Shown here one piece after another: positions 1 to 61,571 of a stretch of DNA of 64,000 nt; within the stretch, counting starts at the first letter, position 1; each line of letters begins with the position of its first letter. The notes below the pieces were generated by a model that had not been told where the DNA came from, ran no database searches, and was given only the letters and a program-made list of their open reading frames with translations. A program made the position numbers and the translations under genes. The DNA lies in IMG/VR virus record IMGVR_UViG_3300024265_000031; one strand, written 5' to 3'. This DNA comes from a virus.

Positions 1-1117
1 CGCCAGGACTTTCAGTGGTTCCAGCAAATAATCCTCCCAACATTACTGTAGAGGCTCCTGCGGCTAAAGCTTTAGTTATATCGCCAGAATATCTTATACC
101 CCCATCAGCAATTATGTGCTTATTCAATCTTGTAGCAGCCTTTGAACATTTCATAACTGCTGTTAACTGAGGCACTCCTACACCAGCCACAATTCTTGTC
201 GTACAGGAAGCCCCAGGGCCAATTCCAACTTTTACTGTGTCTGCTCCCGCGTCTAATAAATCATTTACTCCACTGGCTGTAGCAACATTTCCACCAACAA
301 TATCCACATGTGGAAATTTTGTTCTAATCTGTCTTATTGTTTTCAGAACAATTTCATTATGACCATGTGCCACATCCACTACAATTGCATCAGCGCCAGC
401 TTCTACAATGGCCTCTACTCTTGCCATATAGTCGCCAATTACACCAACAGATGCACCAACTTTGTATCTTTCATGTTCATCAACAGTAGAATTAGGATAT
501 TTTTCAGAATTCTCTAAAGACTTTGCCGTAATAAGTTTTATAAATTTATAATACATTTGCCTTTCACTTATTATGGGTAATTTTTCAACTTTATGCATTT
601 TGAAAAATTCTTTTGCCTCATCTTTGGTTGGAATGTCCGTCAAATAAAAAATGTTTGACATTGGTGTCATTAGTTCAAGCGCAGTCTTAGACAAATCTGT
701 TTCATAAACATAATCTCTTTTAGAAACAATACCCAAAAAACTATTTTGTGTGTCTACAACAACAAATCCCGTCTTATCAGAATAGCTAATTAATTCCTTC
801 ATTTCTGCAAGAGTAACTAAAGGCAAAATCTTTTGTGGATCCTCAATCGTATGTCCAGCATAATTTTTCACTCTTTTAATATGCCAGACCTCTTCTTCAA
901 TAGACATAAACCTGTGAATAAATCCAATGCCACCAGTCTGAGCCATAGCAATAGCCATGTTTGACTCTGTTACAGTTGCCATATTTGCAGAAATCAATGG
1001 TATATTCAAAACTATTTTTTCTGTAAGATTTGTAGCCAGGGATACATTAGATCTACTATCAATAAATGATCGTTTAGGAACTAGAAGCACATCGTCAAAT
1101 GTCAAACCTTTTATCAT
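1..1117 (-). CDS. guaB: IMP dehydrogenase with CBS domains (3' end beyond window)
   Basis: Not in the ORF track because it runs off the window. Manual translation from ATG at 1117 gives [14 protein letters not shown]...[13 protein letters not shown]...GGIGFIHRF and the catalytic loop [23 protein letters not shown]. Confidence 0.92.
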
Positions 1118-2188
1118 TTAGATAAACCTTGCAAGATTTTTCTCAATAGTTTCCCAATCAATGATTCCACCAGTTCTGTCAATGATGGAATCGTAAGATT
1201 TGCCCGTATTCAATATTGTAATTGGTAGATTAGTTAACATTTCAATCTTATCAATTAGATGGTGTATCTTGGGCGTAATTTGATTGGCATTTGTAGTATT
1301 ATTTATATTGATATCATAGTGCTCACAAAATGTAAGTGCAATTTGTGTTGCGCCATTAACTTCAACCGCATACAACAACTGTTCAAAATCAATCCCAGAT
1401 GCCTTACGCCTGGTTTTGCCATAAATTGAACTAGGTTCTGCAAAGCCCATAGAATCCAATTGATCATATTGAAGCTCTGGTACATCTCCCATATTGCCAG
1501 CACCCTCCCTGGATGGCAATGCCTTTACCACCAAAACAACTTCTTTCAAATTTTGCCAATTCAAAAGCACATCATCTGCCGCAGCCATAGCTGTAACATT
1601 GTCTGAGGTTACGTTAGGGTAGTCACCTATAGACAGCGAAAGAAATGTTCCTTGAGAGGATTCAATCATTACAACACCTTCTTTAGAACCTTGATTGATT
1701 TCTCCGCTAACCTCAGTCAAAAATTCCTGAAGCACTTCAATATCTTTAGCTTGTTGAACTTTACGAAGAGCAAGATCAGCCCTACAATATCCAGTTCCAC
1801 TCATTGTGGATCCAATATTGTTCATATCTTTACTGTCATATTCTGCTTGAATGTGTTCTGGGGTAATGATTGGACAATGCCTGTCTATTTTTACACGTTC
1901 TCTTAGGTTATACCTATCCATTTCGGCAAACAATTTTACAGGATCTACAGCAACACCACTGCCGATTCTAATTTGTGTTTCAGGATTGAATATCCATCCT
2001 AAAGGAAGTTGGTTTGCTTTGAGATAGGTTGTTTCATTTTGCATAAAGATGCCATGCTCTGCATTAGCGCCAGTTCCAGCACGACATACCAATTTAGAAT
2101 TTTCTCTTACACTGAGATATGCATCAATCAACCCCTTTCCCTCATCTCCCCACTGCGCCCCAACGACAATCCATGCTCCTCTATTCAA
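1118..2188 (-). CDS. purA: Adenylosuccinate synthetase family protein, short (archaeal/PurZ-clade-like) form, divergent
   Basis: GAQWGDEGKG P-loop, IGSTMSGTG, ESSQG..LSL..G.YPNVTS; 356 aa. Confidence 0.8.
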   Translation of the reverse strand: MNRGAWIVVGAQWGDEGKGLIDAYLSVRENSKLVCRAGTGANAEHGIFMQNETTYLKANQLPLGWIFNPETQIRIGSGVAVDPVKLFAEMDRYNLRERVKIDRHCPIITPEHIQAEYDSKDMNNIGSTMSGTGYCRADLALRKVQQAKDIEVLQEFLTEVSGEINQGSKEGVVMIESSQGTFLSLSIGDYPNVTSDNVTAMAAADDVLLNWQNLKEVVLVVKALPSREGAGNMGDVPELQYDQLDSMGFAEPSSIYGKTRRKASGIDFEQLLYAVEVNGATQIALTFCEHYDININNTTNANQITPKIHHLIDKIEMLTNLPITILNTGKSYDSIIDRTGGIIDWETIEKNLARFI

Positions 2189-2240
2189 TACTGTTCTCCT
2201 TTTTGTTTTTTATTTTCTCAGATAAAACATCTATTTTATC

Positions 2241-3221
2241 TTAGATTCGATATAATGGGCATTCTCTATTATTACTCCAAAGCCTATTTCGCCATTCTTT
2301 CATCTCTGAAGATAACCAAATATTGTTCAAGAAATCAATATCTCCTAAAAGATTTAGTTTGAATGTATTGTTTTCAGTAAATGAACAAGGGGAAACGTAT
2401 GCATCAACATTGATATAGATAGAAAACAATCCAGACTCGCAAGGTTCTGCATATATTTGAGCCATTGCTTCATGCTGTGTTCCCCTTACTGCATTCATAT
2501 ATTTATGAGCAGAACAAGAATCGAATCCCAGTGGAATATCCCATATTGCAGCCTTTTCAATAAGATTGTTGAATTCTTTTTGATTAAGTTGTGTATATTT
2601 ACTACCCCTTCCACATTTTTTCAAAGACAATAAAACAATTGCATTTATTTTTTTCTTTCTGCTATCTTCTATTTGTAGAAAATCATAGAGATTACTCAGC
2701 GTTTCTTTTGCAAGCATATAATGTACGTTCACTTGATTCAATCCCGCATCAGACAACATTTCAACAGCATTCAAACATACTGTATGATCATAATTGCTTA
2801 CAGCAATAGCTCCACAAAGATTAGCAAGATCTTTCGCTATCTTTGGCACTATCTGATATCCGTTGATAGTCAAATTAGGAACAACATTGTTCTCCCTGCA
2901 GTAATTAAAAATTTTTAACATATCTGGATTGCTATCAAGATCTCCTATTCCAAAAGCAATTTGAGTTATGGTGTCTGGCAATTTGACAAACACTTTTTGA
3001 AAAGTTTCTAGTGTCATATATCTGCCATATATTGTATTTGATTTATAACAGAATGAACATCCTTTATGACATATAGTAGAGATTTCAATATCTGCTATCT
3101 CTGGCCCTAACTCACACCATTGAGGATCTTCTTCTAATGTTTTACCCCATCGTGCCATAAACCCAGTTATTGGATTGAATATCATATTGTAATTTTTCGT
3201 GTGTATTTGTTTTGTTTTCAT
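2241..3221 (-). CDS. Radical SAM enzyme with C-terminal SPASM/twitch-like domain
   Basis: CHKGCSFCY (CxxxCxxC) motif; C-terminal PCESGLFSIYINVDAYVSPCSF...ECP. Confidence 0.9.
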   Translation of the reverse strand: MKTKQIHTKNYNMIFNPITGFMARWGKTLEEDPQWCELGPEIADIEISTICHKGCSFCYKSNTIYGRYMTLETFQKVFVKLPDTITQIAFGIGDLDSNPDMLKIFNYCRENNVVPNLTINGYQIVPKIAKDLANLCGAIAVSNYDHTVCLNAVEMLSDAGLNQVNVHYMLAKETLSNLYDFLQIEDSRKKKINAIVLLSLKKCGRGSKYTQLNQKEFNNLIEKAAIWDIPLGFDSCSAHKYMNAVRGTQHEAMAQIYAEPCESGLFSIYINVDAYVSPCSFTENNTFKLNLLGDIDFLNNIWLSSEMKEWRNRLWSNNRECPLYRI

Positions 3222-3226
3222 TTGTA

Positions 3227-3637
3227 TTATTCGCCCACGATTATATTGAATGTTTCCTCATTGTTCATGACGTTTAGAAAATTAATAAATGATTCATCAT
3301 GATAATCTATGTCTGCTTGCAAAATAATAAATCCTTCTTCTATTTTGGACTTGCATTTTTTATATGTCTTTCTATAATATTCTTCATCATCCAATATTTT
3401 TTCTAGGGTGTCAAACTTTCCCCAACAATGCTCATCAACAAAATATTTGTCTAGCTCTTTGACAGTTTTAATTTGTTCCATTTGATTAGACAATGCACTT
3501 AAGAATGTATCAGTAAAGGTCTTTAAAAATGGATATTTTTCTAGGGTTTCTTTATCAAATATCTCTGAAGATATTTTGGATGCAATCATGTAAGAGGAGG
3601 TAGAACTATTACTTACAAATCCTTGTCTAATTTTCAT
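3227..3637 (-). CDS. MKIRxGFVSNSSSSS-motif protein 4
   Basis: N-terminus MKIRQGFVSNSSTSSY. Confidence 0.85.
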   Translation of the reverse strand: MKIRQGFVSNSSTSSYMIASKISSEIFDKETLEKYPFLKTFTDTFLSALSNQMEQIKTVKELDKYFVDEHCWGKFDTLEKILDDEEYYRKTYKKCKSKIEEGFIILQADIDYHDESFINFLNVMNNEETFNIIVGE

Positions 3638-4107
3638 CCATCCCTCCAGCCCTCTTCATAATATGAAACATCTGAAACATCAAAATCTATATTGAATTGT
3701 TTTTTAATTTCTTCAACAACAATTTGGGGAATTTCTGAAATCTTTCTGTCTGGATATTCTTTTAAAAATGTTTCTGGCATAATGCCAACAAATCTTTCAT
3801 AGTCCCACGGCCCACCCTCTGTCAGATTACCTTTATTTTTTACTTCTTCATCGAATTCATTTTGAGCATATTCAATCTTTTCATCATTTGTTTCACATTG
3901 TTTTAATTCTGCGATATATTCTGGAAATCTTTTTTGCACATAGTCATTGTCAATTTCTTTGGATAATCTTTCTTCATATTCGCTTAATGCATCTTGAAAA
4001 ATTTTTAACCATACATTATCACTGATTTCTATTCTCTCAGATGAAACACCCCATGCCGCAAAACTACTTGTGCTACTGTTGGATACAAATCCATTTCGTA
4101 TTTTCAT
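3634..4107 (-). CDS. MKIRxGFVSNSSSSS-motif protein 3
   Basis: Start re-assigned to ATG at 4107; MKIRNGFVSNSSTSSF. Confidence 0.85.
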   Translation of the reverse strand: MKIRNGFVSNSSTSSFAAWGVSSERIEISDNVWLKIFQDALSEYEERLSKEIDNDYVQKRFPEYIAELKQCETNDEKIEYAQNEFDEEVKNKGNLTEGGPWDYERFVGIMPETFLKEYPDRKISEIPQIVVEEIKKQFNIDFDVSDVSYYEEGWRDG

Positions 4108-4108
4108 T

Positions 4109-4408
4109 TTATGAACTCCATTCCACACAATCCATATTGACACCTATTTTTTCTAAAAATAATTCCATATTGAAATTATCCATGAACACATTGCCCTCAA
4201 TCTTTCTAGAGGTTTCAGAAATATTCCAATTAAAATTGAGATTTCGATAATCGACATCGGGGTGAATTCCACATTCCGACCCAAATAATAAATCATCAAT
4301 TTCAATATGTTTTCTTATGAGTTGTAATTGAATATCAGTAAGCTTATTCTTACTAAGAACAAAACTTGAACTACTACTGTTACTTACAAAACCATTTCTA
4401 ATTTTCAT
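4109..4408 (-). CDS. MKIRxGFVSNSSSSS-motif protein 2
   Basis: MKIRNGFVSNSSSSSF. Confidence 0.85.
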   Translation of the reverse strand: MKIRNGFVSNSSSSSFVLSKNKLTDIQLQLIRKHIEIDDLLFGSECGIHPDVDYRNLNFNWNISETSRKIEGNVFMDNFNMELFLEKIGVNMDCVEWSS

Positions 4409-4417
4409 TTTATTTTC

Positions 4418-4918
4418 CTAATGTTTGCTTATTCTTATGTGTGGCAAATTTCTGAATATATTTCCATGTTCAAGAAAGCATTCATATTGTCCACCATTAT
4501 CACTATACTCAAATAGAGATATGAAACAACCATTATTATCTTGTACAAATTTTCTAAAAAATTCGGAATTTTTAATGGCTTCTAAAGTTGCTTTGTTATA
4601 CCCTTCCCAATCGTAGTCTCCATCTTCAACAAAGTCTTCATAGTCTGGAAGTTCGCCATCAATTTCATAAACAGTTCCACAGCTTAGTTCTTTAATAATT
4701 TCCGATTCACTTATTGAGATTTTTGATATATCCATAAAGATTTTTTCTGAAATTTCTTCTGTAGTATAAGAAGATGTGTCTACATAAGGATGATTTAACC
4801 TTTCTTCTCCATCATACATAAGCTCTTTTGTTTTCTCAACCGACAATGGCTTATTAGGAAAGGCTACTACAAAACTGCTACTTGAACTATTGCTTACAAA
4901 TCCGTTTCTAATTTTCAT
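4418..4918 (-). CDS. MKIRxGFVSNSSSSS-motif protein 1
   Basis: Start re-assigned to ATG at 4918 (AGGAGA RBS); MKIRNGFVSNSSSSSF. Confidence 0.85.
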   Translation of the reverse strand: MKIRNGFVSNSSSSSFVVAFPNKPLSVEKTKELMYDGEERLNHPYVDTSSYTTEEISEKIFMDISKISISESEIIKELSCGTVYEIDGELPDYEDFVEDGDYDWEGYNKATLEAIKNSEFFRKFVQDNNGCFISLFEYSDNGGQYECFLEHGNIFRNLPHIRISKH

Positions 4919-4936
4919 GTATTCTCCTTGTATAAT

Positions 4937-4965
4937 ATCATACCATACTTTTTCAGTCTTGTCAA
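4937..4965 (-). promoter_or_regulatory. sigma70-type promoter for the MKIR/radical SAM operon
   Basis: TTGACA-17nt-TATGAT with TG extension on the minus strand. Confidence 0.8.
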
Positions 4966-4980
4966 GATAAAACCTAGATT

Positions 4981-5235
4981 TTATATTATAAATGGTGGGA
5001 TTTCTAACCACCAAACATCATTGTATTTATTATAATCGATATCTTTGAGATCATATCCAAATGTAGAACTTCCAGACCATGCCTTTTCCATTACATATAT
5101 CATTCCATCAAGTTCTCTACAAGCGTATTTGCCCATCAACAATCTAATGATTGTACGAATTAAAAATGGTTTCTCTAAATACGCCCTTACAAAATCAGTG
5201 GCCCATCCTGAAAGAACAATACATTCACTTATCAT
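4981..5235 (-). CDS. hypothetical protein
   Basis: Probable ATG at 5235 (MISECIV...); stop TAA lies inside the palindrome at 4967-4984. Confidence 0.55.
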   Translation of the reverse strand: MISECIVLSGWATDFVRAYLEKPFLIRTIIRLLMGKYACRELDGMIYVMEKAWSGSSTFGYDLKDIDYNKYNDVWWLEIPPFII

Positions 5236-6124
5236 GCGGGTTTTTAGTAAAAGTCCTTTCCAATGTGGGAACCCCACAAATTTTTTCCCAAACACCAGGA
5301 CTGAATGGGTATTTGTTGCTAGATTCCTCTTTGAAACGCCTTTCTATTCCATATGCCTTATGCTCTTCATATCCATGTCCCCTACCAATGTCTGCAGGAT
5401 TATTTATAATGTACAACAATCCTTTGGTTTTTAGCAATCTTGCAAACTCGTCTACGTAGAAGTCAAACGATGGCTTTGTCATTTCTTGGAACGAATGTAG
5501 ATTTATTCCAAGATCAAAAGATTCTTTTTTGAGTTTCCCAATATTCCAAGCTGGTAATGATACAAAATTGTAATCATTAAAATTGGTTGTCTTATTCAAT
5601 ATACCAGCCACCTTTAGATTAGGGAATGCTTGTTTCATAACTTGTGGTGCAAATGTAAGAGATGAAGGCACATAGTCCACAGAAACATAGTGACACTTCT
5701 TACCAAAAAACTTTAGGAAGAACATTGCCATACGTCCGTAGCCACCACCAACTTCAACCACTCTAATACTTTTCATATTTTCAAAATTAATCTTTTGTGA
5801 TTTGAAAAACTTTTCAATTTTGTAGAATTGATAAAGTCCTGTTTGAACATCCAAAGTGTCTACATTTCTAAAATGTTCTGCCATACTGTGCTTATCAATT
5901 TGGTTAGATTTTTCTTTAGTCTTTTCAGGATATCCATTTCCTAGCCAAGAAAGTGATTCAAACTTTCCTCCGTTATTTATAACAGATTTAAGATTCAGTT
6001 TTGAATCTTTTTCCCAATGATGATGCAATTTACACCCGTCATTATTCTGCCAATTTTTTGCAACAAGTTTTTCCACCCTATTGAATTGTTTTGGATCTAA
6101 TTTAATTTTTGAAAAATCTATCAT
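5225..6124 (-). CDS. Class I SAM-dependent methyltransferase, putative sugar O-methyltransferase
   Basis: VVEVGGGYGR motif I; INLHSFQEM. Confidence 0.75.
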   Translation of the reverse strand: MIDFSKIKLDPKQFNRVEKLVAKNWQNNDGCKLHHHWEKDSKLNLKSVINNGGKFESLSWLGNGYPEKTKEKSNQIDKHSMAEHFRNVDTLDVQTGLYQFYKIEKFFKSQKINFENMKSIRVVEVGGGYGRMAMFFLKFFGKKCHYVSVDYVPSSLTFAPQVMKQAFPNLKVAGILNKTTNFNDYNFVSLPAWNIGKLKKESFDLGINLHSFQEMTKPSFDFYVDEFARLLKTKGLLYIINNPADIGRGHGYEEHKAYGIERRFKEESSNKYPFSPGVWEKICGVPTLERTFTKNPHDK

Positions 6125-6291
6125 ACTTCTTATTCCTCCTTTTTATTTCCAACCATAGATTGTGCCATTTTTGCAAAAAGCTCTCGCTTCTTTCTCAATT
6201 GTTGTGCTTTTTGTTTGAGTTGTTCGCCTTCCAACCCATATGTTTTTCTTACATATCTGGTGAACTCATCTTCTTTATTATTCATAAAATC

Positions 6292-6837
6292 CTATTTTAT
6301 TACCTTTTCATATATAATATCATTTGGAAAATTTAATCCAAATGTAAACCATGCAGTATCAAACCATGCACCTTTTGTTTGTATACCATCTACTATAAAA
6401 CTTATACGCTTATCTAATAATACTAGTTGTAACCAATTGTCTTGAAATATCTTTTGTCTCTTGGCTGTAGATAATGAGGATAGATTCATAAGGAAACAAA
6501 ATGGTTTTCCAAAACTTGCTGCTCTTTCTAAGAATTCAGTTTTCAAAGAGAATGGAGGATTGGTCACAATAATATCCCAATGAAATTCTGGTTTTATTTC
6601 GAAAAAATCTTGTTCCCATTTATAACAGATATCTGTTCCTATGGCTTGATATCCCATATTCCTAGCACAAGATATAATTTTTAACTCTCCGCATCCAGGA
6701 TCCCAAATCACCCAATCTTTAGGAATGTATTTCAAGATTATATTTGTAGCATAATCTGGAGTTTGATAATTATCTTGTTTCAGTTTTTTTGCGTTTGTTT
6801 TTCTGTTCAACCTACTGTATTCATTGTGTTCATTCAT
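6292..6837 (-). CDS. Phage N6-adenine DNA methyltransferase
   Basis: IWDPGCG (motif I), IVTNPPFS (motif IV). Confidence 0.8.
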   Translation of the reverse strand: MNEHNEYSRLNRKTNAKKLKQDNYQTPDYATNIILKYIPKDWVIWDPGCGELKIISCARNMGYQAIGTDICYKWEQDFFEIKPEFHWDIIVTNPPFSLKTEFLERAASFGKPFCFLMNLSSLSTAKRQKIFQDNWLQLVLLDKRISFIVDGIQTKGAWFDTAWFTFGLNFPNDIIYEKVIK

Positions 6838-6849
6838 AGTTTTCTCCTT

Positions 6850-6925
6850 GAAGCAGGTAAAAGATTCGAACTTTTTACTAGTGGTTCAAAGCCACTTATG
6901 TTAAGCCAATTACACCAACCTGCCA
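6850..6925 (-). tRNA. tRNA-Gln(TTG)
   Basis: Anticodon arm AGTGG-CT-TTG-AA-CCACT; GTTCGAATC T-loop. Confidence 0.85.
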
Positions 6926-6928
6926 CAA

Positions 6929-7000
6929 TACTCCCACAGAGAATTGAACTCTGATCTGGACATTGAAAGTGTCCAATCCTGACCATTAGACGATGGGAGT
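6929..7000 (-). tRNA. tRNA-Glu(TTC)
   Basis: GGACA-CT-TTC-AA-TGTCC; cloverleaf. Confidence 0.9.
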
Positions 7001-7028
7001 ATTTTATCAACACTATATTGTTACTAAA

Positions 7029-7103
7029 TCTGGATGGGAAGATTTGAACTTCCGATTTCGCGCGTCCAAGGCGCGTATCTTAGCCTGACTCGATTACATC
7101 CAG
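7029..7103 (-). tRNA. tRNA-Pro(TGG)
   Basis: CGCGC-CT-TGG-AC-GCGCG. Confidence 0.9.
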
Positions 7104-7104
7104 T

Positions 7105-7300
7105 TATTCTGGCTTTCCACCAGATTGACAGTGTTATCATGAATTACTGTTTGTTGTCTTTTTCCAACTGTCAGGTTTAGTCAACAACTTTCCTTTGTCA
7201 CAGGCTCCTACATTTTTACTCAGGGACATATTATTGTTTGAGATTTACTGTCGATTTCATCTGTGTGTTTACCAAGCGAGACAAATACTTGGTCAGCCTT
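7105..7300 (-). ncRNA. Putative structured RNA between tRNA-Tyr and tRNA-Pro
   Basis: About 195 nt with no ORF of 60 aa or more, several complementary stems (ACCAAG/CTTGGT, GACAGT/ACTGTC, CTGG-TGGAAAG-CCAG). Confidence 0.45.
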
Positions 7301-7301
7301 G

Positions 7302-7383
7302 TGGATGCGAAAGGGCTCGAACCTATAATGCTTTACGCGCCTGATTTACAGTCAGGTTCCTTATCCATTTTGGATACACATCC
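7302..7383 (-). tRNA. tRNA-Tyr(GTA)
   Basis: CCTGA-CT-GTA-AA-TCAGG; long variable arm. Confidence 0.9.
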
Positions 7384-7390
7384 ATATCTG

Positions 7391-7477
7391 CGGAGAATGC
7401 TAGGATCGAACTAGCGCACCCAATTACGGATGACCTCAATTTAGCAAATTGGTGCTTTGCCACTCAGCCAATTCTCC
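7391..7477 (-). tRNA. tRNA-Ser(GCT)
   Basis: CAAT-TT-GCT-AA-ATTG; long variable arm. Confidence 0.88.
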
Positions 7478-7478
7478 A

Positions 7479-7565
7479 AGGAAGGTGGTGGGATTGAACC
7501 ACCGCACCCCGTTAAGGATGTCATCAGTTTTCAAGACTGCAGCATTACCACTCTGCCAACCTTCC
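7479..7565 (-). tRNA. tRNA-Ser(TGA)
   Basis: CAGT-CT-TGA-AA-ACTG; long variable arm. Confidence 0.88.
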
Positions 7566-9042
7566 AATAAATTGTTAAGGTGCTTTTCTAAATGTTATAA
7601 AAAATAAAAAATTTATACCCCAATATGTTTCCATGTGATGCCGTCTTGATGGGCTTATTGCAAATGAAAACAAAGAATGTTTTCCTAGTCTTAGAATATA
7701 TATTCGAAAAACTCCATATTCATAATTTATACTAAATAAATCAAAATTAAATGTTTTCAAATAAAATCTCCGTTTTATTCAATCACCAAGATATTTCTAT
7801 TGTTTCCATACTTTTTTTATATGATTCCTTAATAGCGGCTTGATATCCATGGTAAGCTAACCATTTAAGAATATCAATGGCATGCTTTTCATTCACAAGA
7901 ATATCAATACCACAATTTCCATTCTGGCATTTTTTTGTTATCTCTTGTGTAATCCTGTGTTTATATTTTTTTAAAACATCTTCAGATTCAATAATCTCGC
8001 GTGCTTCTTTTGCCATAATTAAATTATTCATATATTTTCTCCAGATAAAAATTCGTTTTATTCAAAACAATGGGCGGTGCAGGTATTATAATTTTACCAC
8101 ATCCCATACACCTTATAGCCACAGCAACAACCATAAACATAAATCCTTCTACTGTATGTCCACTATCTTTATTGCAATGGCGGCAAACAATAGGTGTTGA
8201 TTTTGATTGATATCCATATTGATTTTTATTGATTTGTAATTCCATTTTATTCTCCAGATAAAATATTCGTTTTATTCTGTTTTTATTTGATCTATTGCAC
8301 TACATAATTTCACAAACATATCACGAATCTCATAAATATCTTCAATACTATTTATAGCAAAAAGACAATCATTAAATTCTGATAATATTAAGTTTTCGCG
8401 TAAACGCAATTCTTTATTTTGTGTAACTTCAATATCTCCTCGAAGAGCAAATACTCGATTCCAATGATCACTAATAATATTCACATGTTTTATATGTACA
8501 TCTGTTATATTCAAAACATCAAGATCTATTTTTTCCATTTTATATTTTCCTTATTTCCAAATAAAAATTTGTTTTATTCGTAATACCAGCTTATTTGTAG
8601 TTTAATGGCATTACTTTCACAAGACACACTTCCACAATCTCTAGCACCATATTTTAACTTAACAAGATGCGATAAAATTCTTGAAACATTTTTTTGATGA
8701 ACACAAACATCAATTGAATATTCTCCATTTTGACAAGCTGTTGTAATAGCAGAGCTAACAATATTGAAATCTTTTTGAAAATCTTCATTTATTGCTGTAG
8801 CAATTTCTTGTGCTTGTTTTGCATTTATCATTTTTGTTTCCTTTATTTCTCTTTGGTGTTGTATAACTTGATCAAGAACTATTGTAGTAATAAGTTCGGG
8901 ATTTCTTTTTCCTAAATTTATAGCAGCACCAAGCCTTCTTGGTTCAAATACATCGATATGTAACCAATAAAAATCTTCTTGATCTCTGGAAATTTTTAAT
9001 TTATCCATTTTTTCTCCAAGATAAAACCTTCGTTTCATTTGA

Positions 9043-9119
9043 TGGGGTGACTGAGGAGATTTGAACTCCCAACTTCTGCATTCACAGTGCAGCGTTCCGC
9101 CAATTGAACTACAGCCACC
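9043..9119 (-). tRNA. tRNA-His(GTG)
   Basis: CTGCA-CT-GTG-AA-TGCAG; G-1 and encoded CCA. Confidence 0.92.
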
Positions 9120-10553: not shown

Positions 10554-11804
10554 TCATTGTGTTGTCAATATTTCTGTTCTAATCTTATCTAATATTTCTT
10601 CAATGTCCATATTCATCAATACCATATTTTGTATCTCTGCAATTGTAATATCTTCTCTTATATTAAATTCAATTTTAATTTCTTTATCAAAAAATTTGCT
10701 CAAAAAATCTTGTACCATTTCTCTAGTAGCATAACCAATTTCTACCTTCAAATCTATTCGACCTGGTCTAATAAGGGCAGAATCTAATTTTTCAACATGG
10801 TTAGTTGTAGATACTAAAATTCTTCCATGAGAAGAAAAAAATCCATCAATAGAATTCAAAATTCCAGATAAACCAATTTTATTTATATCATCAAACAAAC
10901 TATCTATTTCTTCTATTTCATTCTTGCCATTCTTTTTATTTGTTTTTTTCTTACGACTTTTTGTAAGATTGCTGGAATCAATGTCTTCGATAACAAGAAT
11001 AGCCCTATCAGGTAACTCGCTCACCGCACTTTCTATTTTCATTAAGCTTTGAGCCCCCAAATAAAAAATAGGATAGTTTAAATATGTTGCAATTGCTTTA
11101 ATCATGCTCGTTTTGCCAGTGCCAGGATGACCATGCAATAATATTCCCAATTGATAAGGTATTCCCATATCTATATACCAATCTTCTTTTTCAATAAATC
11201 TATCTAAACTATCAAATATTATTTTTTTCTTATTGCTCTCTAAAAAAACACTTTCGGGATTCCTTGAAGAAATATTTTTAACATAAGACCAATAAGAATG
11301 ATCCATTTTATATATTTCGATTCCCTCCTTTTGTGAAATCGAATCTGCATTTTTTACAAAACTTTTTAGAATATTTGAATTTCTTCCTAAACATGTTAGC
11401 TTCAAACTGTCTTTTTCATATTCAGTATTATTTGCGCTTTCTTTATCAATACGAACAATAATTATTCGTTTTTCATAAAGAATAAAATGAGTTCCATAAC
11501 CCATAGAAATAGTAATAGCTTTATCACCGCCATATCTTCCACTTGTAACTTTCAATCTTCTAAAATTTTTATCTCCATAATTATCTTGCAAAGTTTTTAA
11601 AATTTTATAATAAACAATATTGGCATTTGACATTTCAATATCGGTTGTAAAAAATCTTTTTATATTATTGATTATTGATAATGGAAGATCTTTAATCCAA
11701 AAAGTTATTATGCCAGCACCACTTAAACCAATAAGAGTTGTTAACAGTTGATTTTCCTCAATTTTTGCAATAATTGTTTCAATGATTTTTATAATGTCGT
11801 CCAA
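10554..11804 (-). CDS. BCS1-like AAA+ ATPase with N-terminal membrane anchor
   Basis: Walker A GHPGTGKT, Walker B VIEDID, LSGILNSIDG, TTNHVEKLDSALIRPGRID. Confidence 0.85.
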   Translation of the reverse strand: MDDIIKIIETIIAKIEENQLLTTLIGLSGAGIITFWIKDLPLSIINNIKRFFTTDIEMSNANIVYYKILKTLQDNYGDKNFRRLKVTSGRYGGDKAITISMGYGTHFILYEKRIIIVRIDKESANNTEYEKDSLKLTCLGRNSNILKSFVKNADSISQKEGIEIYKMDHSYWSYVKNISSRNPESVFLESNKKKIIFDSLDRFIEKEDWYIDMGIPYQLGILLHGHPGTGKTSMIKAIATYLNYPIFYLGAQSLMKIESAVSELPDRAILVIEDIDSSNLTKSRKKKTNKKNGKNEIEEIDSLFDDINKIGLSGILNSIDGFFSSHGRILVSTTNHVEKLDSALIRPGRIDLKVEIGYATREMVQDFLSKFFDKEIKIEFNIREDITIAEIQNMVLMNMDIEEILDKIRTEILTTQ

Positions 11805-13693: not shown

Positions 13694-15010
13694 TTATTGG
13701 TTCCAAATTTTTGCTAATTGTTTCGTATATTGTTTGTCATTAATGCAACGCCCAACTGGAATATAATTAATTCTAAGTTTATTAGATAATTCTTGGTCAA
13801 GAATTCGCCAAAAATCTATTACTGTAGTGTTTGGTAAAAAATCTTCTACAGTAAGAGATTTAAATACTGGATCTGGATTAGTAATTAACACAATGTTTGC
13901 TCGTTTTAAACAATATTTGAGCGAATTATATCCTTCCACCAAAGGATCATATCCAACAACCCGCACATCAATTCTATTTAATGCTTGCAACAAACTCATT
14001 GCTTGAGATTCTTCTGTTACTTGTGAATGTGGTTTATAAGCAAGTCCTAAAATAGCCACTGTTGTTTCTTTTGTTATCATAGGCATTAATTGATGAACAA
14101 TGCGACTAGGCAATAACCGATTCATTTGATCTGTTACTTCCGCTATTCCAGATTCAGAACCAATTGCATTTGCAAAATAACCCAACGCAAGATTGTCTCT
14201 TGGAAAACAAGGGCCACCATAGCCTAAAGCACCTTTCAAATATTTATTGCCAATACGCGTGTCAGCCCCTAGCGCATCAGTTACTATATCTACATTGCCC
14301 CCAGGAATACGTTCACATAAATCAGCTAACATATTTGCATAAGTTATTTTAGTAGTAACATAAGTATTCAAAGCCACTTTAGTTAGCTCTGCATTTTCCA
14401 AACTCATACGTTTACAGGGTGAATTGTTTTCCATAATTTCTGAATAAAATTTTTCAAGGTATCCACCGCAGCGTTTATCAAATTCTCCAATAAGGGTAAA
14501 ATCAGGATTGAGAAAATCTTGAATAATACTCCCCAAAGCAATAAATTCAGGGCTGTAACATAAGCCAAAGTGATTGCCGCATTTTTTACTTGATACTTTT
14601 TCTAAAATGGGTAACAGCCCAAACCGTGTTGCGCCAGGGAGAACCGTACTCGCCAATACAATATTGTGATATTCATTTTTATTTTTAAGAACTTCACCTA
14701 TTTGATAAAAAACTTCAGATACATATTCTAACGAAAAGGATCCGTTTGGATTACTGGGTGTGGGAACTATTACGAATGACAGATCTGAATTCATAATGGC
14801 ATCCGTATAGTCCTTGGTCGCCCTAATGCGAAGACTATTATCCGCTACAGTCTCTTCTAAGTTAGTCTCTTGTACGGGCGCATGTCCTGCATTAACTAAA
14901 TCTATTGTTTGTTGATTGTTATCAACGCCTATAACATTGAAACCTTTGCTTGCAATGGCTGCTGTCATGCTTGCCCCCAATTTTCCTAATCCGATGATTG
15001 ATATTGTCAT
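13694..15010 (-). CDS. UDP-glucose/GDP-mannose dehydrogenase family
   Basis: GLGKLG, VPTP, YSPEF, GYGGPCFPRD, GLAYKP. Confidence 0.92.
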   Translation of the reverse strand: MTISIIGLGKLGASMTAAIASKGFNVIGVDNNQQTIDLVNAGHAPVQETNLEETVADNSLRIRATKDYTDAIMNSDLSFVIVPTPSNPNGSFSLEYVSEVFYQIGEVLKNKNEYHNIVLASTVLPGATRFGLLPILEKVSSKKCGNHFGLCYSPEFIALGSIIQDFLNPDFTLIGEFDKRCGGYLEKFYSEIMENNSPCKRMSLENAELTKVALNTYVTTKITYANMLADLCERIPGGNVDIVTDALGADTRIGNKYLKGALGYGGPCFPRDNLALGYFANAIGSESGIAEVTDQMNRLLPSRIVHQLMPMITKETTVAILGLAYKPHSQVTEESQAMSLLQALNRIDVRVVGYDPLVEGYNSLKYCLKRANIVLITNPDPVFKSLTVEDFLPNTTVIDFWRILDQELSNKLRINYIPVGRCINDKQYTKQLAKIWNQ

Positions 15011-15026
15011 TTGTTTAATCTCCTAG

Positions 15027-15099
15027 AGAGGGTGGTGAGATTCGGACTCACGGCTTCCAATTTGGAAGAATGGCACTCTACCAACTGAGTTACACCCTC
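15027..15099 (-). tRNA. tRNA-Gly(TCC)
   Basis: CCATT-CT-TCC-AA-ATTGG; atypical T-loop GTCCGAAT. Confidence 0.82.
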
Positions 15100-15102
15100 G
15101 CA

Positions 15103-15175
15103 CTCCCACGCCTTGATTCGAACAAGGAACTTCAGTGTTAACAGCACCGTACTCTGCCAGTTGAGTTACATGGGA
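15103..15175 (-). tRNA. tRNA-Asn(GTT)
   Basis: CGGTG-CT-GTT-AA-CACTG. Confidence 0.9.
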
Positions 15176-15185
15176 TCTACCTATA

Positions 15186-15214
15186 ACTATACCATTAATT
15201 CATCATTCTGTCAA
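15186..15214 (-). promoter_or_regulatory. sigma70-type promoter for tRNA-Asn/Gly and the dehydrogenase
   Basis: TTGACA-17-TATAGT. Confidence 0.75.
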
Positions 15215-16180
15215 GGATAATTGATTAACTTGTTCCTCAATCCATGTATAAGTTCTTGTCAATCCATCTTCAAGAGATATTTGTGGCTCCCATCCAAGCA
15301 CTTCTTTTAGTCTAGTGTTATCTGAATTACGCCCTCTTACTCCTTGTGGCCCAGATATGTGTTCGTACTCCGCTTCAACATTGGCAATTTTACAAATAAT
15401 ATCCGCCAATCTATTAATACTTATTATGCGATCTTGTCCTAAATTGAGAGGAGGGTGATAGTTTGACATCATTAATTTATATATGCCTTCTATACAATCA
15501 TCAATATAGCAAAAAGAACGAGTTTGTTCACCATCTCCCCAGATTTGTATTGTGTAGTCGTTTCTTCGTTTTGCTAAAGCTACCTTGCGACATAGTGCAG
15601 CGGGTACTTTTTCTCGCCCGCCTCTCCAAGTTCCCATTGTTCCAAAAATATTGTGAAAACGAACAATCCGTGTTTCAAAACCATAATCAGAACGATAGCG
15701 CAAACACATTTGTTCACTTATTAATTTTTCCCATCCATAAGCATCTTGTGGTTGGGCTGGATACGCGTCATCTTCTTTAAGAGGAACAACCTCTTCGCTT
15801 TCTTGAAGATATTCTGGATATATACAGGCTGAAGATGTATAAAGATATCGTTCTACACCATTCAAGTATGCAGCATGAAGTGTGTGTGTATTGATAAGGC
15901 TGTTGTTGTGCAAAATTTGTGCATGATTACCAGAAATAAATCCCATGCCGCCCATATCGGCCGCTAAAGCATAAACATGGTCAACATTTCTAGTAGCTTG
16001 TAGACAATTATCCCACTTCCTTAAATCAAGTATTTCAAATATATCTGCTTTAGTGGTTTCAAACTTTGGATAATGAAGATCCACACCTCTTACCCAATAT
16101 CCCTTTGACTTGAGATCGTTAACGAGATGATGACCAATAAATCCACCAGCGCCAGTAACAAGAATATTTTTATTTTGCAT
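15203..16180 (-). CDS. GDP-mannose 3,5-epimerase-like NAD-dependent epimerase
   Basis: TGAGGFIG, LAADMGGMGFI, PQDAYGWEK, GREKVPAALCRK, GVRGRNSDN. Confidence 0.88.
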   Translation of the reverse strand: MQNKNILVTGAGGFIGHHLVNDLKSKGYWVRGVDLHYPKFETTKADIFEILDLRKWDNCLQATRNVDHVYALAADMGGMGFISGNHAQILHNNSLINTHTLHAAYLNGVERYLYTSSACIYPEYLQESEEVVPLKEDDAYPAQPQDAYGWEKLISEQMCLRYRSDYGFETRIVRFHNIFGTMGTWRGGREKVPAALCRKVALAKRRNDYTIQIWGDGEQTRSFCYIDDCIEGIYKLMMSNYHPPLNLGQDRIISINRLADIICKIANVEAEYEHISGPQGVRGRNSDNTRLKEVLGWEPQISLEDGLTRTYTWIEEQVNQLSLTE

Positions 16181-19884: not shown

Positions 19885-19905
19885 TTTTTCTCCTTTTTAT
19901 TTCTA

Positions 19906-19980
19906 CAGGACGTAAGGGAATCGAACCCAAGATTGCCTACTGTTTTGGAGACAGTTATGCTACCATTACACCAACGTCCT
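19906..19980 (-). tRNA. tRNA-Trp(CCA)
   Basis: ACTGT-CT-CCA-AA-ACAGT. Confidence 0.9.
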
Positions 19981-22043
19981 AGATAAAATGATGCTTTTAT
20001 TTAAGGTGCTATTCCAACGTTCCACTCATAGCCACCATCACAATAACCGTCATCAATATGGGGATTGCACCCACACTGTTCATATTCTTTGATAAATTTA
20101 TCATACTGATCTTGAAGCAACACCCTAATCATTTGATCAATGACCCACATTTTATGATGCCCTCCGTCAATTTGTGCGTATTGATATGCCACTTGGATTG
20201 CCTCGTCTATTTTGCTCATTTTTCTCCATATAAAAGATGTTTTTATTTAACTTCTTCGTAATTTATTTCAATCCATTCATTAGCCCAATGCTCTGCCTCT
20301 TTCCATTTTTCATCAGGAGACAACTCTTTCCATTCCTCTTCTGAATATCCTAAATCCTCCACGTCAAACACATCTATTTGGTCGTTCATAAATCCAATTC
20401 CTACCGTAAATTTTACTTTCATATTTCTCTCCAGATAAAATGGCGCTTTTATCTACTCACCTAAATCCCATTCTTCATACTCATCACAAACTGTATCTTC
20501 TTCTATTGAAAACTTTGATTCTTTCAACCTAATACAATAGTATTCCTCATGATCAAATTCTACAAGACAATGTGTGCAATAATTACAACATGGTACAGTT
20601 CTAAAATTAATTGATTCTTTGAATTTGGTTAATTCTTTATTATCCATAGTTTTCCTTACATAAAACAACGATTTTATCTAGTTTTGAATGCATCACAACA
20701 ATTATTTCCTTCCGTATAAAGAATTATTTCATCTCCCAATTTTGTGTATCCAATTTTTAAACATTTGTAATCTTCATCATAATATAGCATCTCGGAATAT
20801 TCACAATTTTGACAACATTTAGATTCACTAAAATTATTTTCTTTCTTGAATTGAGAAATTTTATTATCTATTTCAATTTGCCTTTTCTCTAATTCTATAT
20901 TCTTAGCAATAATTTTACATCTATCACATGATTTTGGTTCAATGTTCCTTGATCTTACTTGGGTTGTGCCACACTCAACACATTCAAAATAATATTTCTT
21001 TTTTGTTTTTGCTTTCTTATAGGACATAATTTTCTCCAAATAAAACCATCATTTTATTCTGGTTTAAGATCGCCTAATTTTTTTCCGCAAAATGGACAAT
21101 AACGCATCATCATACTGTCGTCATGTAATGATGGTCTAATAAAAAGATTGTAAACAGAATTGATTCCGAAATAATTTTTATAAATAGCAACACTTATTTC
21201 TTCACAGCAAGCATTTGCGGTTTCATGCCTTGTTACATCTTTTATTTTCATTTGTTTTGGACTAATTACTTTGTTCACAATAAAACCCTTTTTTCATCTT
21301 GAATTTTTAATTCTTTTATTTTCATTATTTTACGTTAATAAACAAGATATTTTCATTTGAAAAATAGTAATATAAGATTTATAAATATAGGTATAGGTTT
21401 GAATGTAACTAATACAAGATTTTGCTTCATAGTAATCTATTAAAAATATAATACATATAAGAAAAAAAATAGAAGTTGCCACCACAGAACGAAATATAAT
21501 CTTTTTGTGTATTTTATTCATATTTCTCAAGATGTTTTTTTAGTTTATCAACCATTTCTTTTTCAATAGGACTATTTTCTAAAGTAGGATCTTTATCGAC
21601 ATAATACCAGCCACTTTGCTCTAAATCTTTTTCAAAACAAATCCCAATTCTAAAATCATTGCTCACAAACTCAATCGCCAAGCTTCCATCATCACATTCA
21701 TAATAATCTAAAGAAACTTTACTCACAATAAAATCTCATTCCATCTCGTCATAAATTAAATATTCTTCATCACATGAAAAACATTTTTCTTTTGTCATCT
21801 TGTTTTCCAAATTGTCTTTAAAAATAACATTGCAACTATAGTAACACTTAGGACATTCCCATCTAAAAACAGTTTCGCTTTTAGCTTTTATCTTTTTCAA
21901 TAAATCTCCGTATATAAATTTTCATTATCATTTTCTAGTTTTTTAATTTCATTTTTTAATTCTTTATTTTCTTTTATAAGACAAGCGATTTTTTTATTCA
22001 AACTCTTTAATTTTTTCCCACACTTTTTACAACGTTTCATATA

Positions 22044-36685: not shown

Positions 36686-36725
36686 TTTTATCTCCTCATT
36701 CCACGCATATTGTTAAAAGCAAAAA

Positions 36726-36799
36726 CGCTGATGACGAGATTTGAACTCGCAAGCCTTCTGTTCGACAGACAGATGTGCTACCATTTACACCACACCAGC
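36726..36799 (-). tRNA. tRNA-Asp(GTC)
   Basis: TCTGT-CT-GTC-GA-ACAGA. Confidence 0.88.
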
Positions 36800-36823
36800 A
36801 CAATAAAATTTTCACTAATTCAA

Positions 36824-55200: not shown

Positions 55201-57846
55201 TTTTGCTAAAATAATTGTGTCCATTGATTCTCCTTGTATCTTATTATAAGTATATCAGATTACATATGTTATGTCAAGATAAAATGACGATTTTATTGAA
55301 TCTCATCAACCCTTTTTATTGTCTTGCAATTTTTTGCAATCATAAAACTTTTAATATAAACGCTGCCATTATCTGGTTGAGAAGAATTAGACCTAAGTGA
55401 ATTGTTATCAATACCTAGAGGAATTGCATTGCCAGAATATATTGCATTTATACCATCTTGAAGATATTTTCCACTTATTGCTTCGCATTCACAATGTCTG
55501 GTTTTCATTCTTAGACCAAAAATATCTTTGCACCTTCTACAATATAATAATTTCATTTTACAACTCTAATTCCCTTTGAGAGTGTTCTTATCATTTTTCC
55601 AAACCACCATAGTTGCATAAATCCCAATTTTCTGTTGAATGGCAATAAGAACAAATTTGTAATGCCACAAAAAATGTCAATTAAATTACCAATGGCTTGC
55701 ATCCATTTTGGAACTTCATTCAATCTTGTTATTTTAAGAGGGTAGGGGATCATATTATTCTCCAAATAAAATAGTTGTTTTATCTGTGCCAATCAGATCA
55801 GTTACACTTATTGTATCTGTTGGTATTTTGTTTTCAACATATTTCAGCATTTCTTCTGTTATTTCAAATTCCAACACTGGTACTTCATAAATTTCAATTA
55901 TACTACCAGGATATTGTTTATTTAATATCTTCAATACCATTCTGATATCTCGCACTGAACCTTTTCTTAAATGTTCTTTTGCTGTTGATGGTGTTAAAAA
56001 CATATGGTGTTCAAAAATAAGCGGATTACTAAATCCTTCTAAGCCTTTACGTCTAATAATTGTTACTGTCCTAGTTGCATTATGTTTTTCTCTATAGTTC
56101 ATAGTATTATGTATATATTCTTATATACTTCTCCTTTACGTATATCGAAATATGGGAAAATTATACACATGGAATTTCTGGCAATATGGCAGATATCCAT
56201 AAACCACTATTTTTGCTTTTGTTATGTGGATAGAAAAAATGTCCTTCTCTTACAAATGATATCTCATTATTCCCTTGCCACCCACGTACTAAACACAGAG
56301 ATGGCTTTTCTCCAGCGTATTCTTGTCCATACCACCAATAAATTCCTGGTTTAGTAGGTATTTTTTTTGACCATGTATTCATATTTCTCCTAGATAAAAC
56401 AATTTTTTACCTAATATTTTCTAATTCTAACAGCCTGTTATTTATCCAACGTCTTCTTTTTGGCGAACAAGCATACCTTTCTGACTCTAAAGATTTTTTT
56501 TCTCCCTTTAATGATTCATGTAACAAAAAATTGAATGCCAACGGATAATTTTTTAGAAATTTTTGCCAAGCATTATAAGACACGTATTTTATTTGCATTT
56601 ATATATCCTTCCAGATAAAATCAATCTTTTATTTAACATACATTAAATCTATAGCTACAGATAAATCAAAAGTTTCTTCAAACCAACGCCAAATATCTTC
56701 TCTGGGTGTTCCTGGCTCAAACTCCAAAACCCACTCTTCGATTTTTTCATCATCGTTAATTGGAATATCGCCCAATAATTGCCAAAGTTCTTTTGCTTCC
56801 TCTAATTTATTCATGTTGTTCTCCTAAGATAAAATGGATCTTTTATTTGGGATACATTTCCATTGCGTGAATTTGAATACATGAAGTGCCTTTTTTTACA
56901 TGTTCCATAACACCATCAATTTGACCCCTTTCATACAAATATTCTTCTGCAACTGCATGATTAATTTGTTTGATTTGACATCCAGTTCTTGAACAATCAA
57001 TTATAAATACTGGCAAACCTTCTCCATGTTTTTTAATAAGGTGATTGACAACGCTTTTTAATTCACCTAAAGTCATTGTTATGTCTTCAACTTTCATGTT
57101 GTTCTCCTTCAAATGAAATAAACCTTTTATTCAGTATATCCAAAATCTTGAACATATCCAAAAAACATATCACGCGGATCTCCTGCTCGTTCAATTTTTG
57201 AAATAAGAAATCTTGCTGTTTTTCCACTTTCCATTTTTGCTCTTAACTCATCACCAATGCTAGGGATGGGTGTCATATGTCCTGTTATGCGTCTTGAGTT
57301 CCAATCAGAAAAATATATTGAGTTTCCCCAACCGCTATGGTTACTCATATTTATAATTGTTCCAGTTAGTGGTGGTCGTCTAACTTTCTTTTTGAAAATT
57401 TTATTAAGTAATTTCATTTTTATCTCCTTCAGATAAAATAGACCTTTTATTTCCAGCGATATTCTACTGACTGGCAACTAATCCATAGCGGAATAATTCC
57501 CAATAGAAAATATCCGTGCCATTTGCGTTCTACAAAATTGCCAAACGACTTTATTTTTGTCTTTCTTTCTGTTATCCATATATTTTTTATAATCATAGTA
57601 TTTTTCTCAATAAAACAGACATTTCATTTAAAAATTCTTTAAATTTTTATATGTTTCTTTTACATATCCATAACTACTCATAACATTTTCCATAGCCACA
57701 TAATGCAAAGTGCTTATGGGAATGTCTTGGTCAGTATCTAATGCTCCACAATATAAAAGTTTCTTAACTTCATTGGCAAATTTTTCTGTTATTTGTGCTA
57801 AAAATCTTTCCATGTGTATTGAGTCTAGGTATTCTTTTCTGTTCAT
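52271..57846 (-). other. Array of small hypothetical ORFs separated by the palindrome
   Basis: About 19 ORFs of 60-120 aa. Confidence 0.75.
55249..55277 (-). promoter_or_regulatory. sigma70-type promoter
   Basis: TTGACA-17-TATACT, adjacent to the palindrome at 55279. Confidence 0.7.
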
Positions 57847-60402: not shown

Positions 60403-61415
60403 GTTTTATTTATAATCATCATATATTTTTTGTAAGTGTGGATGTAGCTTCTTTTTGTATCCCAACCAATACCATTGCAAATTGCGATAAAGCTTTATAA
60501 TCCACCACCTATTGATTTTCTCATCAAAGTGTGTATAAAACCAATCCCATGAAAAAATTGCTTCAGAACTGTCTTCCCAATTGAATACTTTTCTTGTAGC
60601 TTCCCAATCTATAGTATAAAACCCTCCATCCTCATCCCAATAGGCTACGTTTTCAGGTAAACAATTTTTACATACATAAGTATCACGCAATGGTCTTTCA
60701 TATTCATCGTTGGGATCTAAGCAATGTTCTGCCGTATTTGTAAATCTTCTTTTTTCGCCTAGCGTAAGTACCTGCTTACATTTTGGACAACGATTTTTAA
60801 GTTTTGTGTGTAAGTTGTTAATTCTCATTGCATATTCCTTTCAGATAAAATTAGTCTTTTATTTGTCAAATTTATCATTTAATTTTTCCATTACCATCTG
60901 CAAAATCTCTTCTTTTTTCAATACCATCCTAGTATTCATTCTTACATTTTGTCCTAAAATATGTCGAGCAGTACTAATAATGTCAGGTATTTTCTTTTTG
61001 TTCTCACATTCTTTTAGTTTCTGCAAGATTAAATATATGCCATCCATCAAATGTTCATGTCGTTCTACCATATTATTCTTTTTATGTTCAGAAATTATTA
61101 GCTTACCTGTTGTTATTTTAAGTTTCTTTTTTAGCACTTCATTTTCTTTTTGTAGGGTTTTTGTTTTCAACCACATAATATTTTCCTTTCAAGATAAAAT
61201 TGTCGTTTTATTTTAGTCTTTCGTTTGTGCTGGAATTTCTTCTGCCTTGATTACATGAAAATCTTGGCAGTCTTCCTTTCCATCTAGTTCTCCCGCTAAA
61301 ACTTTATCAATTGCGCTAGATATATCAATTGCTTCAACTTCATAATAGAATTCCACCACTTGTTCTGCTATTATTTTGAATTTCATTTTATTCTCCTTGT
61401 ATATTTTGTTATTCA

Positions 61416-61488: not shown

Positions 61489-61490
61489 AA

Positions 61491-61565: not shown

Positions 61566-61571
61566 GTTAGA

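Follow-up and report, generated by a model that had tools for sequence, protein, structure and literature searches.

We analyzed a 64,000-nucleotide stretch of viral DNA (IMG/VR record IMGVR_UViG_3300024265_000031; the whole stretch is called the window below) in which four tandem genes, whose products start with nearly the same 16-residue peptide (the tag), adjoin a gene for a radical S-adenosylmethionine (SAM) enzyme. The enzyme and the tag probably form an undescribed tag-directed protein-modification system, in which the tagged proteins are the clients. The same combination is found in hundreds of phages and in Avs2-like immune operons of bacteria. Every gene in the region around this operon lies on the minus strand, and the operon has the following features.

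4937-4965, minus strand: sigma-70-type promoter, TTGACA-17 nt-TATGAT with an extended -10 TG (11/12 consensus match)
4418-4918, minus strand: tagged client 1, 166 aa, isoelectric point (pI) 4.6, member of phrog_7397 (E 1.7e-21)
4109-4408, minus strand: tagged client 2, 99 aa, pI 5.0, body in the second largest body cluster (61 members)
3634-4107, minus strand: tagged client 3, 157 aa, pI 4.4, body a singleton among 484 tagged proteins
3227-3637, minus strand: tagged client 4, 136 aa, pI 4.8, body in a cluster of 27, tag variant with Q5, T13 and Y16
2241-3221, minus strand: radical SAM enzyme, 326 aa (PF04055, PF13186; phrog_7293, E 1.7e-66)
2221-2240, minus strand: hairpin directly 3' of the enzyme stop codon (-8.6 kcal/mol, z -3.1; matched by 3 of 200 shuffles)

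All four client genes start with the tag, MKIR(N/Q)GFVSNSS(S/T)SS(F/Y), as a first-pass annotation of the window had reported. The back-translated tag pattern was found at 4 sites in the 64-kb window, exactly the four genes, and at none in 100 shuffles. When the four tags were aligned with two homologues from Klebsiella phage Miro, 13 of the first 15 positions were identical. The copies use AGY and TCN serine codons, and both Asn codons, at the same tag positions; this synonymous scatter indicates selection at the level of the peptide and upholds the earlier claim of protein-level conservation. Among 298 unique tags the peptide was always at residue 1, with K2, S9, N10, S11 and S12 invariant and R4 present in 297. 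Positions 3 and 5 varied freely, even inside one array of tagged genes, and whole arrays had S, F, Y, K, R, N, C or D in place of G6. Position 7 was F in 291 tags and Y in five, with M and L once each, and some arrays had His. A tag profile built from 123 diverse tagged proteins matched 25,957 representatives of 50%-identity protein clusters at E <= 0.001. When 401 genomes of one bacterial class were searched with the tag pattern, it occurred only in the metagenome-assembled genome (MAG) from which the search started (15 copies), plus one chance match; nine listed copies share one contig, probably a binned phage. Neither the tag nor its association with this enzyme clade was described in the literature that we searched, and the paper on phages KP15 and KP27 mentions no tag-enzyme system and contains no virion proteomics.

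Behind the tag, the bodies of the clients are dissimilar and acidic, as had been proposed. The four clients in the window have pI values of 4.4-5.0 and body net charges of -6 to -18, and tagged bodies overall contain 20% Asp plus Glu. Client length is 99-166 aa in the window and reaches 279 aa elsewhere (80-280 aa overall). The 484 unique tagged proteins were sorted by body (123 body clusters, 87 singletons), and the window's four clients fell into three different clusters and one singleton. Comparison of tag-less body profiles for the 12 largest clusters gave probabilities of at most 39.5%, with a median of 0.3%. No Pfam match was found among the 123 body-cluster representatives, only four tagged proteins were longer than 292 aa, all without a Pfam domain, and NCBIfam had no curated family for the clients.

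A protein search with client 1 returned 292 relatives. Among the 120 best of these, K2, R4, G6, F7, V8, S9, N10, S11-14 and F16 were invariant, together with D140, E150, H151 and H166 toward the C-terminus. The AlphaFold2 (AF2) model of client 1 was a confident fold, with a predicted local distance difference test (pLDDT) score of 92.8. We detected no known fold for it: Foldseek against the PDB gave no match at E <= 0.001, a wide structure comparison had a best Z of 3.6, BFVD a best E of 0.018, the PDB sequence profile search nothing relevant, and the ESM Atlas only viral clusters of the same family. In the model, residues 13-20 form the first core strand, while residues 1-10 (mean pLDDT 51) are the sole poorly packed part although they are invariant, so internal packing does not explain their invariance. 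These observations bear on the explanation that the clients are ordinary paralogues, diverged copies whose tag is the best-kept strand of a common fold, with the radical SAM gene as an unrelated neighbor. Such copies would be unsurprising, because tandem duplication is common in early regions of phages, and the position of residues 13-20 in the client fold agrees with it. We nevertheless regard it as extremely improbable: the bodies have no profile-level homology, the unpacked residues are the invariant ones, the codon scatter points to selection on the peptide, and the tag accompanies the enzyme in phages, bacteria and archaea alike. The tag is thus not the first strand of a shared known fold.

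Linkage of the tag and the enzyme

We examined the association of tag and enzyme in both directions. In IMG/VR, 465 stretches encode the tag core, and 77 tag-centered loci, chosen around relatives of client 1, contained arrays of up to 14 tagged genes. The enzyme was encoded within 10 kb in 47 of these. Ten of the enzyme-less loci were searched as whole records, and seven proved to be fragments, 8-45% complete, without an enzyme match. For the reverse direction, a single-protein enzyme query gave no match to loci and an alignment query was used for the locus search. Strict tags lay within 10 kb of the enzyme in 70 of 80 enzyme-centered loci, and a looser pattern added variant tags in five loci, for at least 75 of the 80. 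The tagged genes of these loci were all on the strand of the enzyme. Clustering of same-strand open reading frames (ORFs) recovered the enzyme in 80/80 loci, tagged proteins in 72/80 and the next family in 12/80; no recognition protein, protease or exporter was conserved around the enzyme. Co-occurrence of tag and enzyme, which the first-pass annotation had suggested following up, was borne out by these counts.

Cultured phages carry the pair as well. The T4-like Klebsiella phages and coliphages (Straboviridae) Miro, KP27 and RB43 have two tagged genes each, and KP27 has a single enzyme gene ~19 kb from its tagged genes. A complete 359-kb phage has both the enzyme and tagged genes. Four phage genomes that are complete or serve as references were checked, and in three of them the tagged genes do not occur independently of the enzyme. 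A family-0 tagged gene in a complete 225-kb phage with terminal repeats (L061 10013-10672) retains intact tag codons and starts with ACG instead of ATG; the next usable ATG is 28 codons downstream.

The pair is not confined to phages, so the description of the system as phage-encoded holds for the window and is too narrow for the family. Among species-representative genomes, the enzyme was found in 26 loci, mostly MAGs of archaea, Patescibacteria and spirochaetes, and 17 of the 26 had strict tags. On a 793-kb Promethearchaeota contig (L162 7831-11479), the enzyme gene, next to one for an OLD-family nuclease (AAA_15 plus TOPRIM), faces one tagged gene, of family 0, with no phage genes nearby. 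This arrangement resembles a defense-island setting in an Asgard archaeon. An enzyme homologue was also present on seven alphaproteobacterial megaplasmids, of which we read the operons of three (A. tumefaciens Ach5 and Sta004, and Rhodobacter CZR27). Each operon opens with a gene for a protein of ~885 aa (SMEK_N plus NACHT) and continues with genes for a tagged protein of 131-132 aa and for the enzyme; two of the three also encode a 121-aa protein between the large and the tagged one. The large SMEK_N/NACHT protein matches PADLOC Avs2 models (E 8e-27). The untagged 121-aa protein between the Avs2-like and tagged genes (L188 5213-5578 in Rhodobacter; L189 5243-5608 in Ach5) had no Pfam or PADLOC match.

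Avs2 of Klebsiella pneumoniae needs a small accessory protein, Avap2, which is a stable sensor-binding partner, and the radical SAM protein Avap1 is needed against phage T2 and not against SECphi18; a viperin-type product of Avap1 was looked for and not detected (Bechon et al. 2024, Nat Commun 15:9860, PMC11564622). Compared by gene architecture, the three megaplasmid operons resemble this KpAvs2-Avap1-Avap2 system in combining an Avs2-type STAND gene, a radical SAM gene and a small accessory gene. The window differs in having four clients instead of one and in the absence of a STAND gene from positions 1-9000, so the Avs2-operon architecture is not found there. PF19902 (DUF6375, the family named for Avap2) did not match the tagged proteins on the three megaplasmids, and its weak matches in two MAGs were untagged proteins. 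The uncharacterized Avap1/Avap2 pair is the nearest published item, and the KpAvs2 paper mentions neither the tag nor phage homologues (PMC11564622).

This distribution also bears on a packaging role for the tag, in which it would be a capsid-targeting sequence for head injection, with the enzyme only loosely linked. T4-type internal-protein loci consist of tandem genes with a common N-terminal peptide and unrelated bodies. The tagged genes resemble these tandem polymorphic phage genes, which have only a short N-terminal peptide in common, and some of their homologues are in T4-like Straboviridae. Prohead-protease sites of the (L/I)xE type, however, need Glu, and the tag has none and hence no such cleavage motif. 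The pair is also found on alphaproteobacterial plasmids and, without nearby phage genes, on the 793-kb archaeal contig; the operon has an early-type promoter; and the enzyme is predicted to bind the tag itself, whereas the T4 signal has no partner enzyme. The clients were therefore not classed as T4-type internal proteins, and we consider packaging very unlikely.

The enzyme and its predicted capture of the tag

The first-pass annotation had described the neighbor of the clients as a CxxxCxxC radical SAM protein with a twitch- or SPASM-like tail, and the Pfam scores agreed with this. PF04055 scored 37.1 bits (cut-off 29.5) and PF13186, the SPASM domain, 23.6 bits (cut-off 21.5). The CxxxCxxC motif (C51/C55/C58) was invariant in 44 relatives, which places the enzyme in the radical SAM superfamily. 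Its AF2 model (pLDDT 92.1) has three short N-terminal strands, the partial TIM barrel of the superfamily and a twitch-like C-terminal domain. After the barrel, only C236, C261, C279 and C321 are invariant; C136 is near-invariant. The seven-Cys SPASM motif, including CxxCx5CxxxC, is absent, so the enzyme is not a two-cluster SPASM protein. With only four invariant auxiliary cysteines, we regard it as a reduced, twitch-like SPASM relative with room for one cluster. The enzyme family, phrog_7293, is a phage family of unknown function; in NCBIfam the enzyme found no curated family, its best match (E 1.7e-5) falling far short of the cut-off, and no model of the anaerobic sulfatase-maturating enzymes (anSME) matched, while PADLOC gave only a weak viperin-like radical SAM match.

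The closest structural matches of the model were SuiB (Z 23.4, root-mean-square deviation 3.4 over 296 aligned residues) and SkfB (Z 22.2), followed by anSMEcpe (Z 19.1, 3.0 over 261), CteB (Z 18.5) and EpeE (Z 16.8), all at 13-18% identity. The modeled fold is thus closest to those of peptide-modifying radical SAM enzymes. The likeness to SuiB/SuiA (streptide), SkfB and CteB extends to the predicted threading of a peptide into the barrel, and the modeled addition of a tag strand to the N-terminal sheet of the enzyme recalls leader binding by the recognition elements of maturases of ribosomally synthesized and post-translationally modified peptides (RiPPs). The clients here differ from RiPP precursors in being folded proteins of 80-280 aa from many unrelated families, and recognition and the probable reaction site would lie in one 16-residue segment at the extreme N-terminus. 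RiPP maturase systems are marked by a short precursor that has a leader and a distinct core, by a PqqD-like recognition domain and by a protease or exporter encoded nearby. Pfam detected no PqqD-like recognition domain in the enzyme. With long clients, of which one folds confidently, and neither that domain nor a third conserved gene, the operon was not assigned to the RiPP maturase systems.

The RiPP-maturase fold of the enzyme would also suit a RiPP-like release, in which the modified N-terminal peptide is the product and is cut from carrier bodies. The 80 enzyme loci, though, contain no conserved protease or exporter to go with it, the release of the same peptide from every client would make up to 14 bodies per array pointless, and the second half of the tag belongs to the client fold. 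We therefore judge release to be highly unlikely.

Among protein-modifying enzymes, anSME/AtsB is similar in that a radical SAM enzyme with auxiliary clusters oxidizes Ser or Cys in a short near-N-terminal motif of a whole protein before folding. The clients here are not one enzyme family, in contrast to that system, and the enzyme has one auxiliary cluster site rather than two. Sulfatase maturation itself was rejected, as the tag lacks the (C/S)-x-(P/A)-x-R motif and has no Pro or Ala followed by Arg in register. The glycyl-radical loop R-V-x-G-(F/W/Y) was rejected as well, because the tag Arg is two residues before Gly, not three, and G6 is replaced in whole arrays. The aromatic-x-x motif of triceptides fits F7-V8-S9 and F16-x-x, with the limit that position 7 is not always aromatic. 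By analogy with these enzymes, the system may represent tag-guided radical SAM maturation of peptides or proteins.

We modeled the enzyme, with SAM and two clusters, in complex with client 1 residues 1-40. The score, which is the model's own confidence, was 0.91 (0.91, 0.93 and 0.90 in individual runs), compared with 0.01 for the best control, so the suggested modeling of the complex favored binding. In calibration, the score mark was reached by 58 of 80 solved complexes and by 2 of 110 mismatched pairs. Agreement between runs was at least 59% of contacts, and the pLDDT of the partner was at least 57. In the model, tag residues 1-20 are all in the interface. K2-R4 pair with enzyme strand 20-25 of the small N-terminal sheet, F7 touches Q87, V114, N116, G137, A138 and Q163, and elsewhere the tag contacts the Cys-rich domain and the inner side of all six barrel strands. 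The predicted tag-contact residues are the most conserved positions of the enzyme family.

Three rare tag variants occurred together with changes at these predicted contacts. The array in which all tags have His7 is the sole one with a Q87-to-S enzyme, Q87 being present in 36/36 canonical loci. In an array with F or Y at tag position 6, enzyme residues 21-24 change from FFAR to NTKV, and the alphaproteobacterial tags with K4 and D6 go with a Q163-to-K enzyme. These three cases suggest that tag variants co-vary with the enzyme contacts of the model. Recognition of the tag by this radical SAM clade is thus supported by computation, since the two are co-located in both directions, no other neighbor is conserved, the complex model scored above its controls, and the three cases of co-variation agree.

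Linkage, binding model and co-variation would fit docking without modification equally well. Here the tag would plug interchangeable adaptors or regulators into the enzyme, like an F-box hub, and the enzyme would have another substrate or be switched on and off by the clients. The findings for Avap1 and Avap2 (PMC11564622), a stable sensor-binding partner and a radical SAM protein with no viperin-type product detected, are also in its favor. The modeled tag, however, occupies the inside of the barrel as far as the SAM side (residues 89-91, 117-118, 139-140, 165-167 and 196-198), leaving no room for another substrate. Moreover, tag residues 13-20 cannot sit in the enzyme and in the client core sheet at once, which argues for a transient encounter. 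Docking alone is unlikely on this evidence, though it is the strongest of the alternatives.

Setting of the operon in the window

The window comes from a contig of ~150 kb and has the appearance of a large phage's non-structural arm. Its DNA had no match to isolated phages, and no RNA run was listed among the sequencing runs that contain it. Within the operon the genes are tightly packed: 1 nt separates those of clients 2 and 3, those of clients 3 and 4 overlap by 4 nt (ATGA), and 5 nt lie between those of client 4 and the enzyme. Two longer ORFs, starting at TTG 5014 (gene 1) and GTG 4143 (gene 3), were rejected because family alignments start at the tag, the ATG at 4918 is preceded by an AAGGAG, and the longer version of gene 1 would contain the promoter. 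A single consensus promoter had been claimed for the operon. The site at 4937-4965 is indeed the best sigma-70-like site within 1900-5400, as a consensus match only, whereas the total of promoter-like sites in that region was not above that of shuffles; going by its sequence, it is likely the early promoter of the operon. The 'palindrome' upstream of it, at 4967-4984 (-1.1 kcal/mol), was no more stable than shuffles. The hairpin at 2221-2240 has no T-run after it and is possibly the operon end or a processing site.

A motif, (G/A)TTTTATCTTGA(C/A)A, forms the T-rich arm that leads into the -35 box. It has three coding-strand copies, at 4960-4973, 55272-55285 and 61187-61200 (minus strand), and five matches at up to two mismatches compared with 1.5 expected. 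It is reminiscent of T4-type phages, in which cassettes of a promoter plus a stem-loop shuffle early genes.

On the 3' side of the operon (window 1-2188) is an adenylosuccinate-synthetase-like gene (PF00709, E 4.5e-45; phrog_1211, a PurZ-type family), and past it an IMP-dehydrogenase-like ORF that is incomplete at the window edge. The 5' side has a class I SAM methyltransferase (PF13649, PF08241) and a DNA methyltransferase (phrog_799, E 5e-39), at 5225-6124 and 6292-6837; neither was kept beside the enzyme in the 80 enzyme-centered loci of other phages. Phage auxiliary genes at 10554-11804 and 13694-16180 encode an AAA-type ATPase (phrog_7485) and a pair of UDP-glucose dehydrogenase and nucleotide-sugar epimerase. 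The window also has 14 tRNA genes (6850-7565, 9043-9118, 15026-15175, 19905-19981, 36725-36800 and 61416-61647). These include two tRNA-Ser (GCU and UGA anticodons) and a tRNA-Asn, which match the dominant tag residues; this may be a coincidence.

Proposed modification and role of the clients

The first-pass annotation had taken the tag for a site of both recognition and modification. Recognition is the part that linkage, the complex model and co-variation support, and modification is what we infer from the kinship of the enzyme. With moderate confidence, we favor a module of one enzyme and many clients in which the enzyme captures client N-termini and modifies the tag. Several observations weigh against it. 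The stretch was present in one sequencing run only, a subsurface metagenome DNA run that is probably the source sample. In Slopekvirus-type phages the enzyme is ~19 kb away from the clients, and the complete 225-kb phage has its family-0 gene without the enzyme. No client family is universal across the loci, and therefore no common downstream function is evident. As for the complex, its score comes from the model itself, similar solved complexes (SuiB-SuiA, CteB, anSME-peptide and ChlB-ChlA) may have raised it through memorization by the model, and the alignments and ligands differ from those of the scoring calibration. The co-variation amounts to three events only, which are not proof.

The proposed course of events is as follows. 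The operon would be transcribed early from its host-type promoter. The enzyme, carrying the SAM cluster and one auxiliary cluster, would capture the first 16-20 client residues as an extended peptide. K2-R4 would add a strand to its small N-terminal sheet, G6-F7 would plug the bottom of the barrel, and S9-N10-S11-S12 would lie inside the barrel, beside the SAM site and the auxiliary-cluster domain. The enzyme would then abstract a hydrogen from a tag residue and leave a covalent change. Since residues 13-20 become the first core strand of the client, the enzyme would act on an unfolded or nascent N-terminus. We think it fairly probable that it binds the unfolded N-terminus and modifies a residue within F7-S12.

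The candidate changes are oxidation of a Ser or Asn side chain, a crosslink and epimerization. By a rough estimate, oxidation of Ser or Asn or a crosslink would have somewhat less than an even chance, epimerization would be rather unlikely, and other chemistry would take up the remainder. The F-V-S crosslink suggested earlier has been weakened: two of the 298 tags have Met or Leu at position 7 and some arrays have His there, which makes a cyclophane at F7 less likely.

The clients are probably host-interference or counter-defense proteins, a role suggested by their probable early expression, their acidity and rapid family turnover and by the Avs2-like link. A more speculative extension, which we hold to be doubtful, is that the enzyme installs a novel modification on the portable tag and that both sides of the phage-host conflict use this device. 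Avs2-like NLR sensors would need one tagged accessory, and phage arrays of up to 14 diversifying proteins, with their own enzyme, would mimic or disarm the sensors.

To our knowledge, most peptide-modifying radical SAM enzymes described so far act on short natural-product precursors, and a few have dedicated protein clients. The system described here would be unusual in its whole-protein clients from more than 100 unrelated families, in combining recognition and the probable reaction site in one N-terminal 16-mer, and in occurring both in phages and in immune operons of cells. Cultured systems in which it can be studied are Klebsiella phages KP15, KP27 and Miro, coliphages RB43 and Lw1, and Agrobacterium tumefaciens Ach5, and the portable tag with its dedicated enzyme could become a protein-engineering tool. 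The presence of the tag on ~26,000 protein clusters (50% identity) without a known domain provides a handle on viral dark matter. The link to Avs2-like operons may explain the accessory genes of a published defense system and reveal a phage counter-measure.

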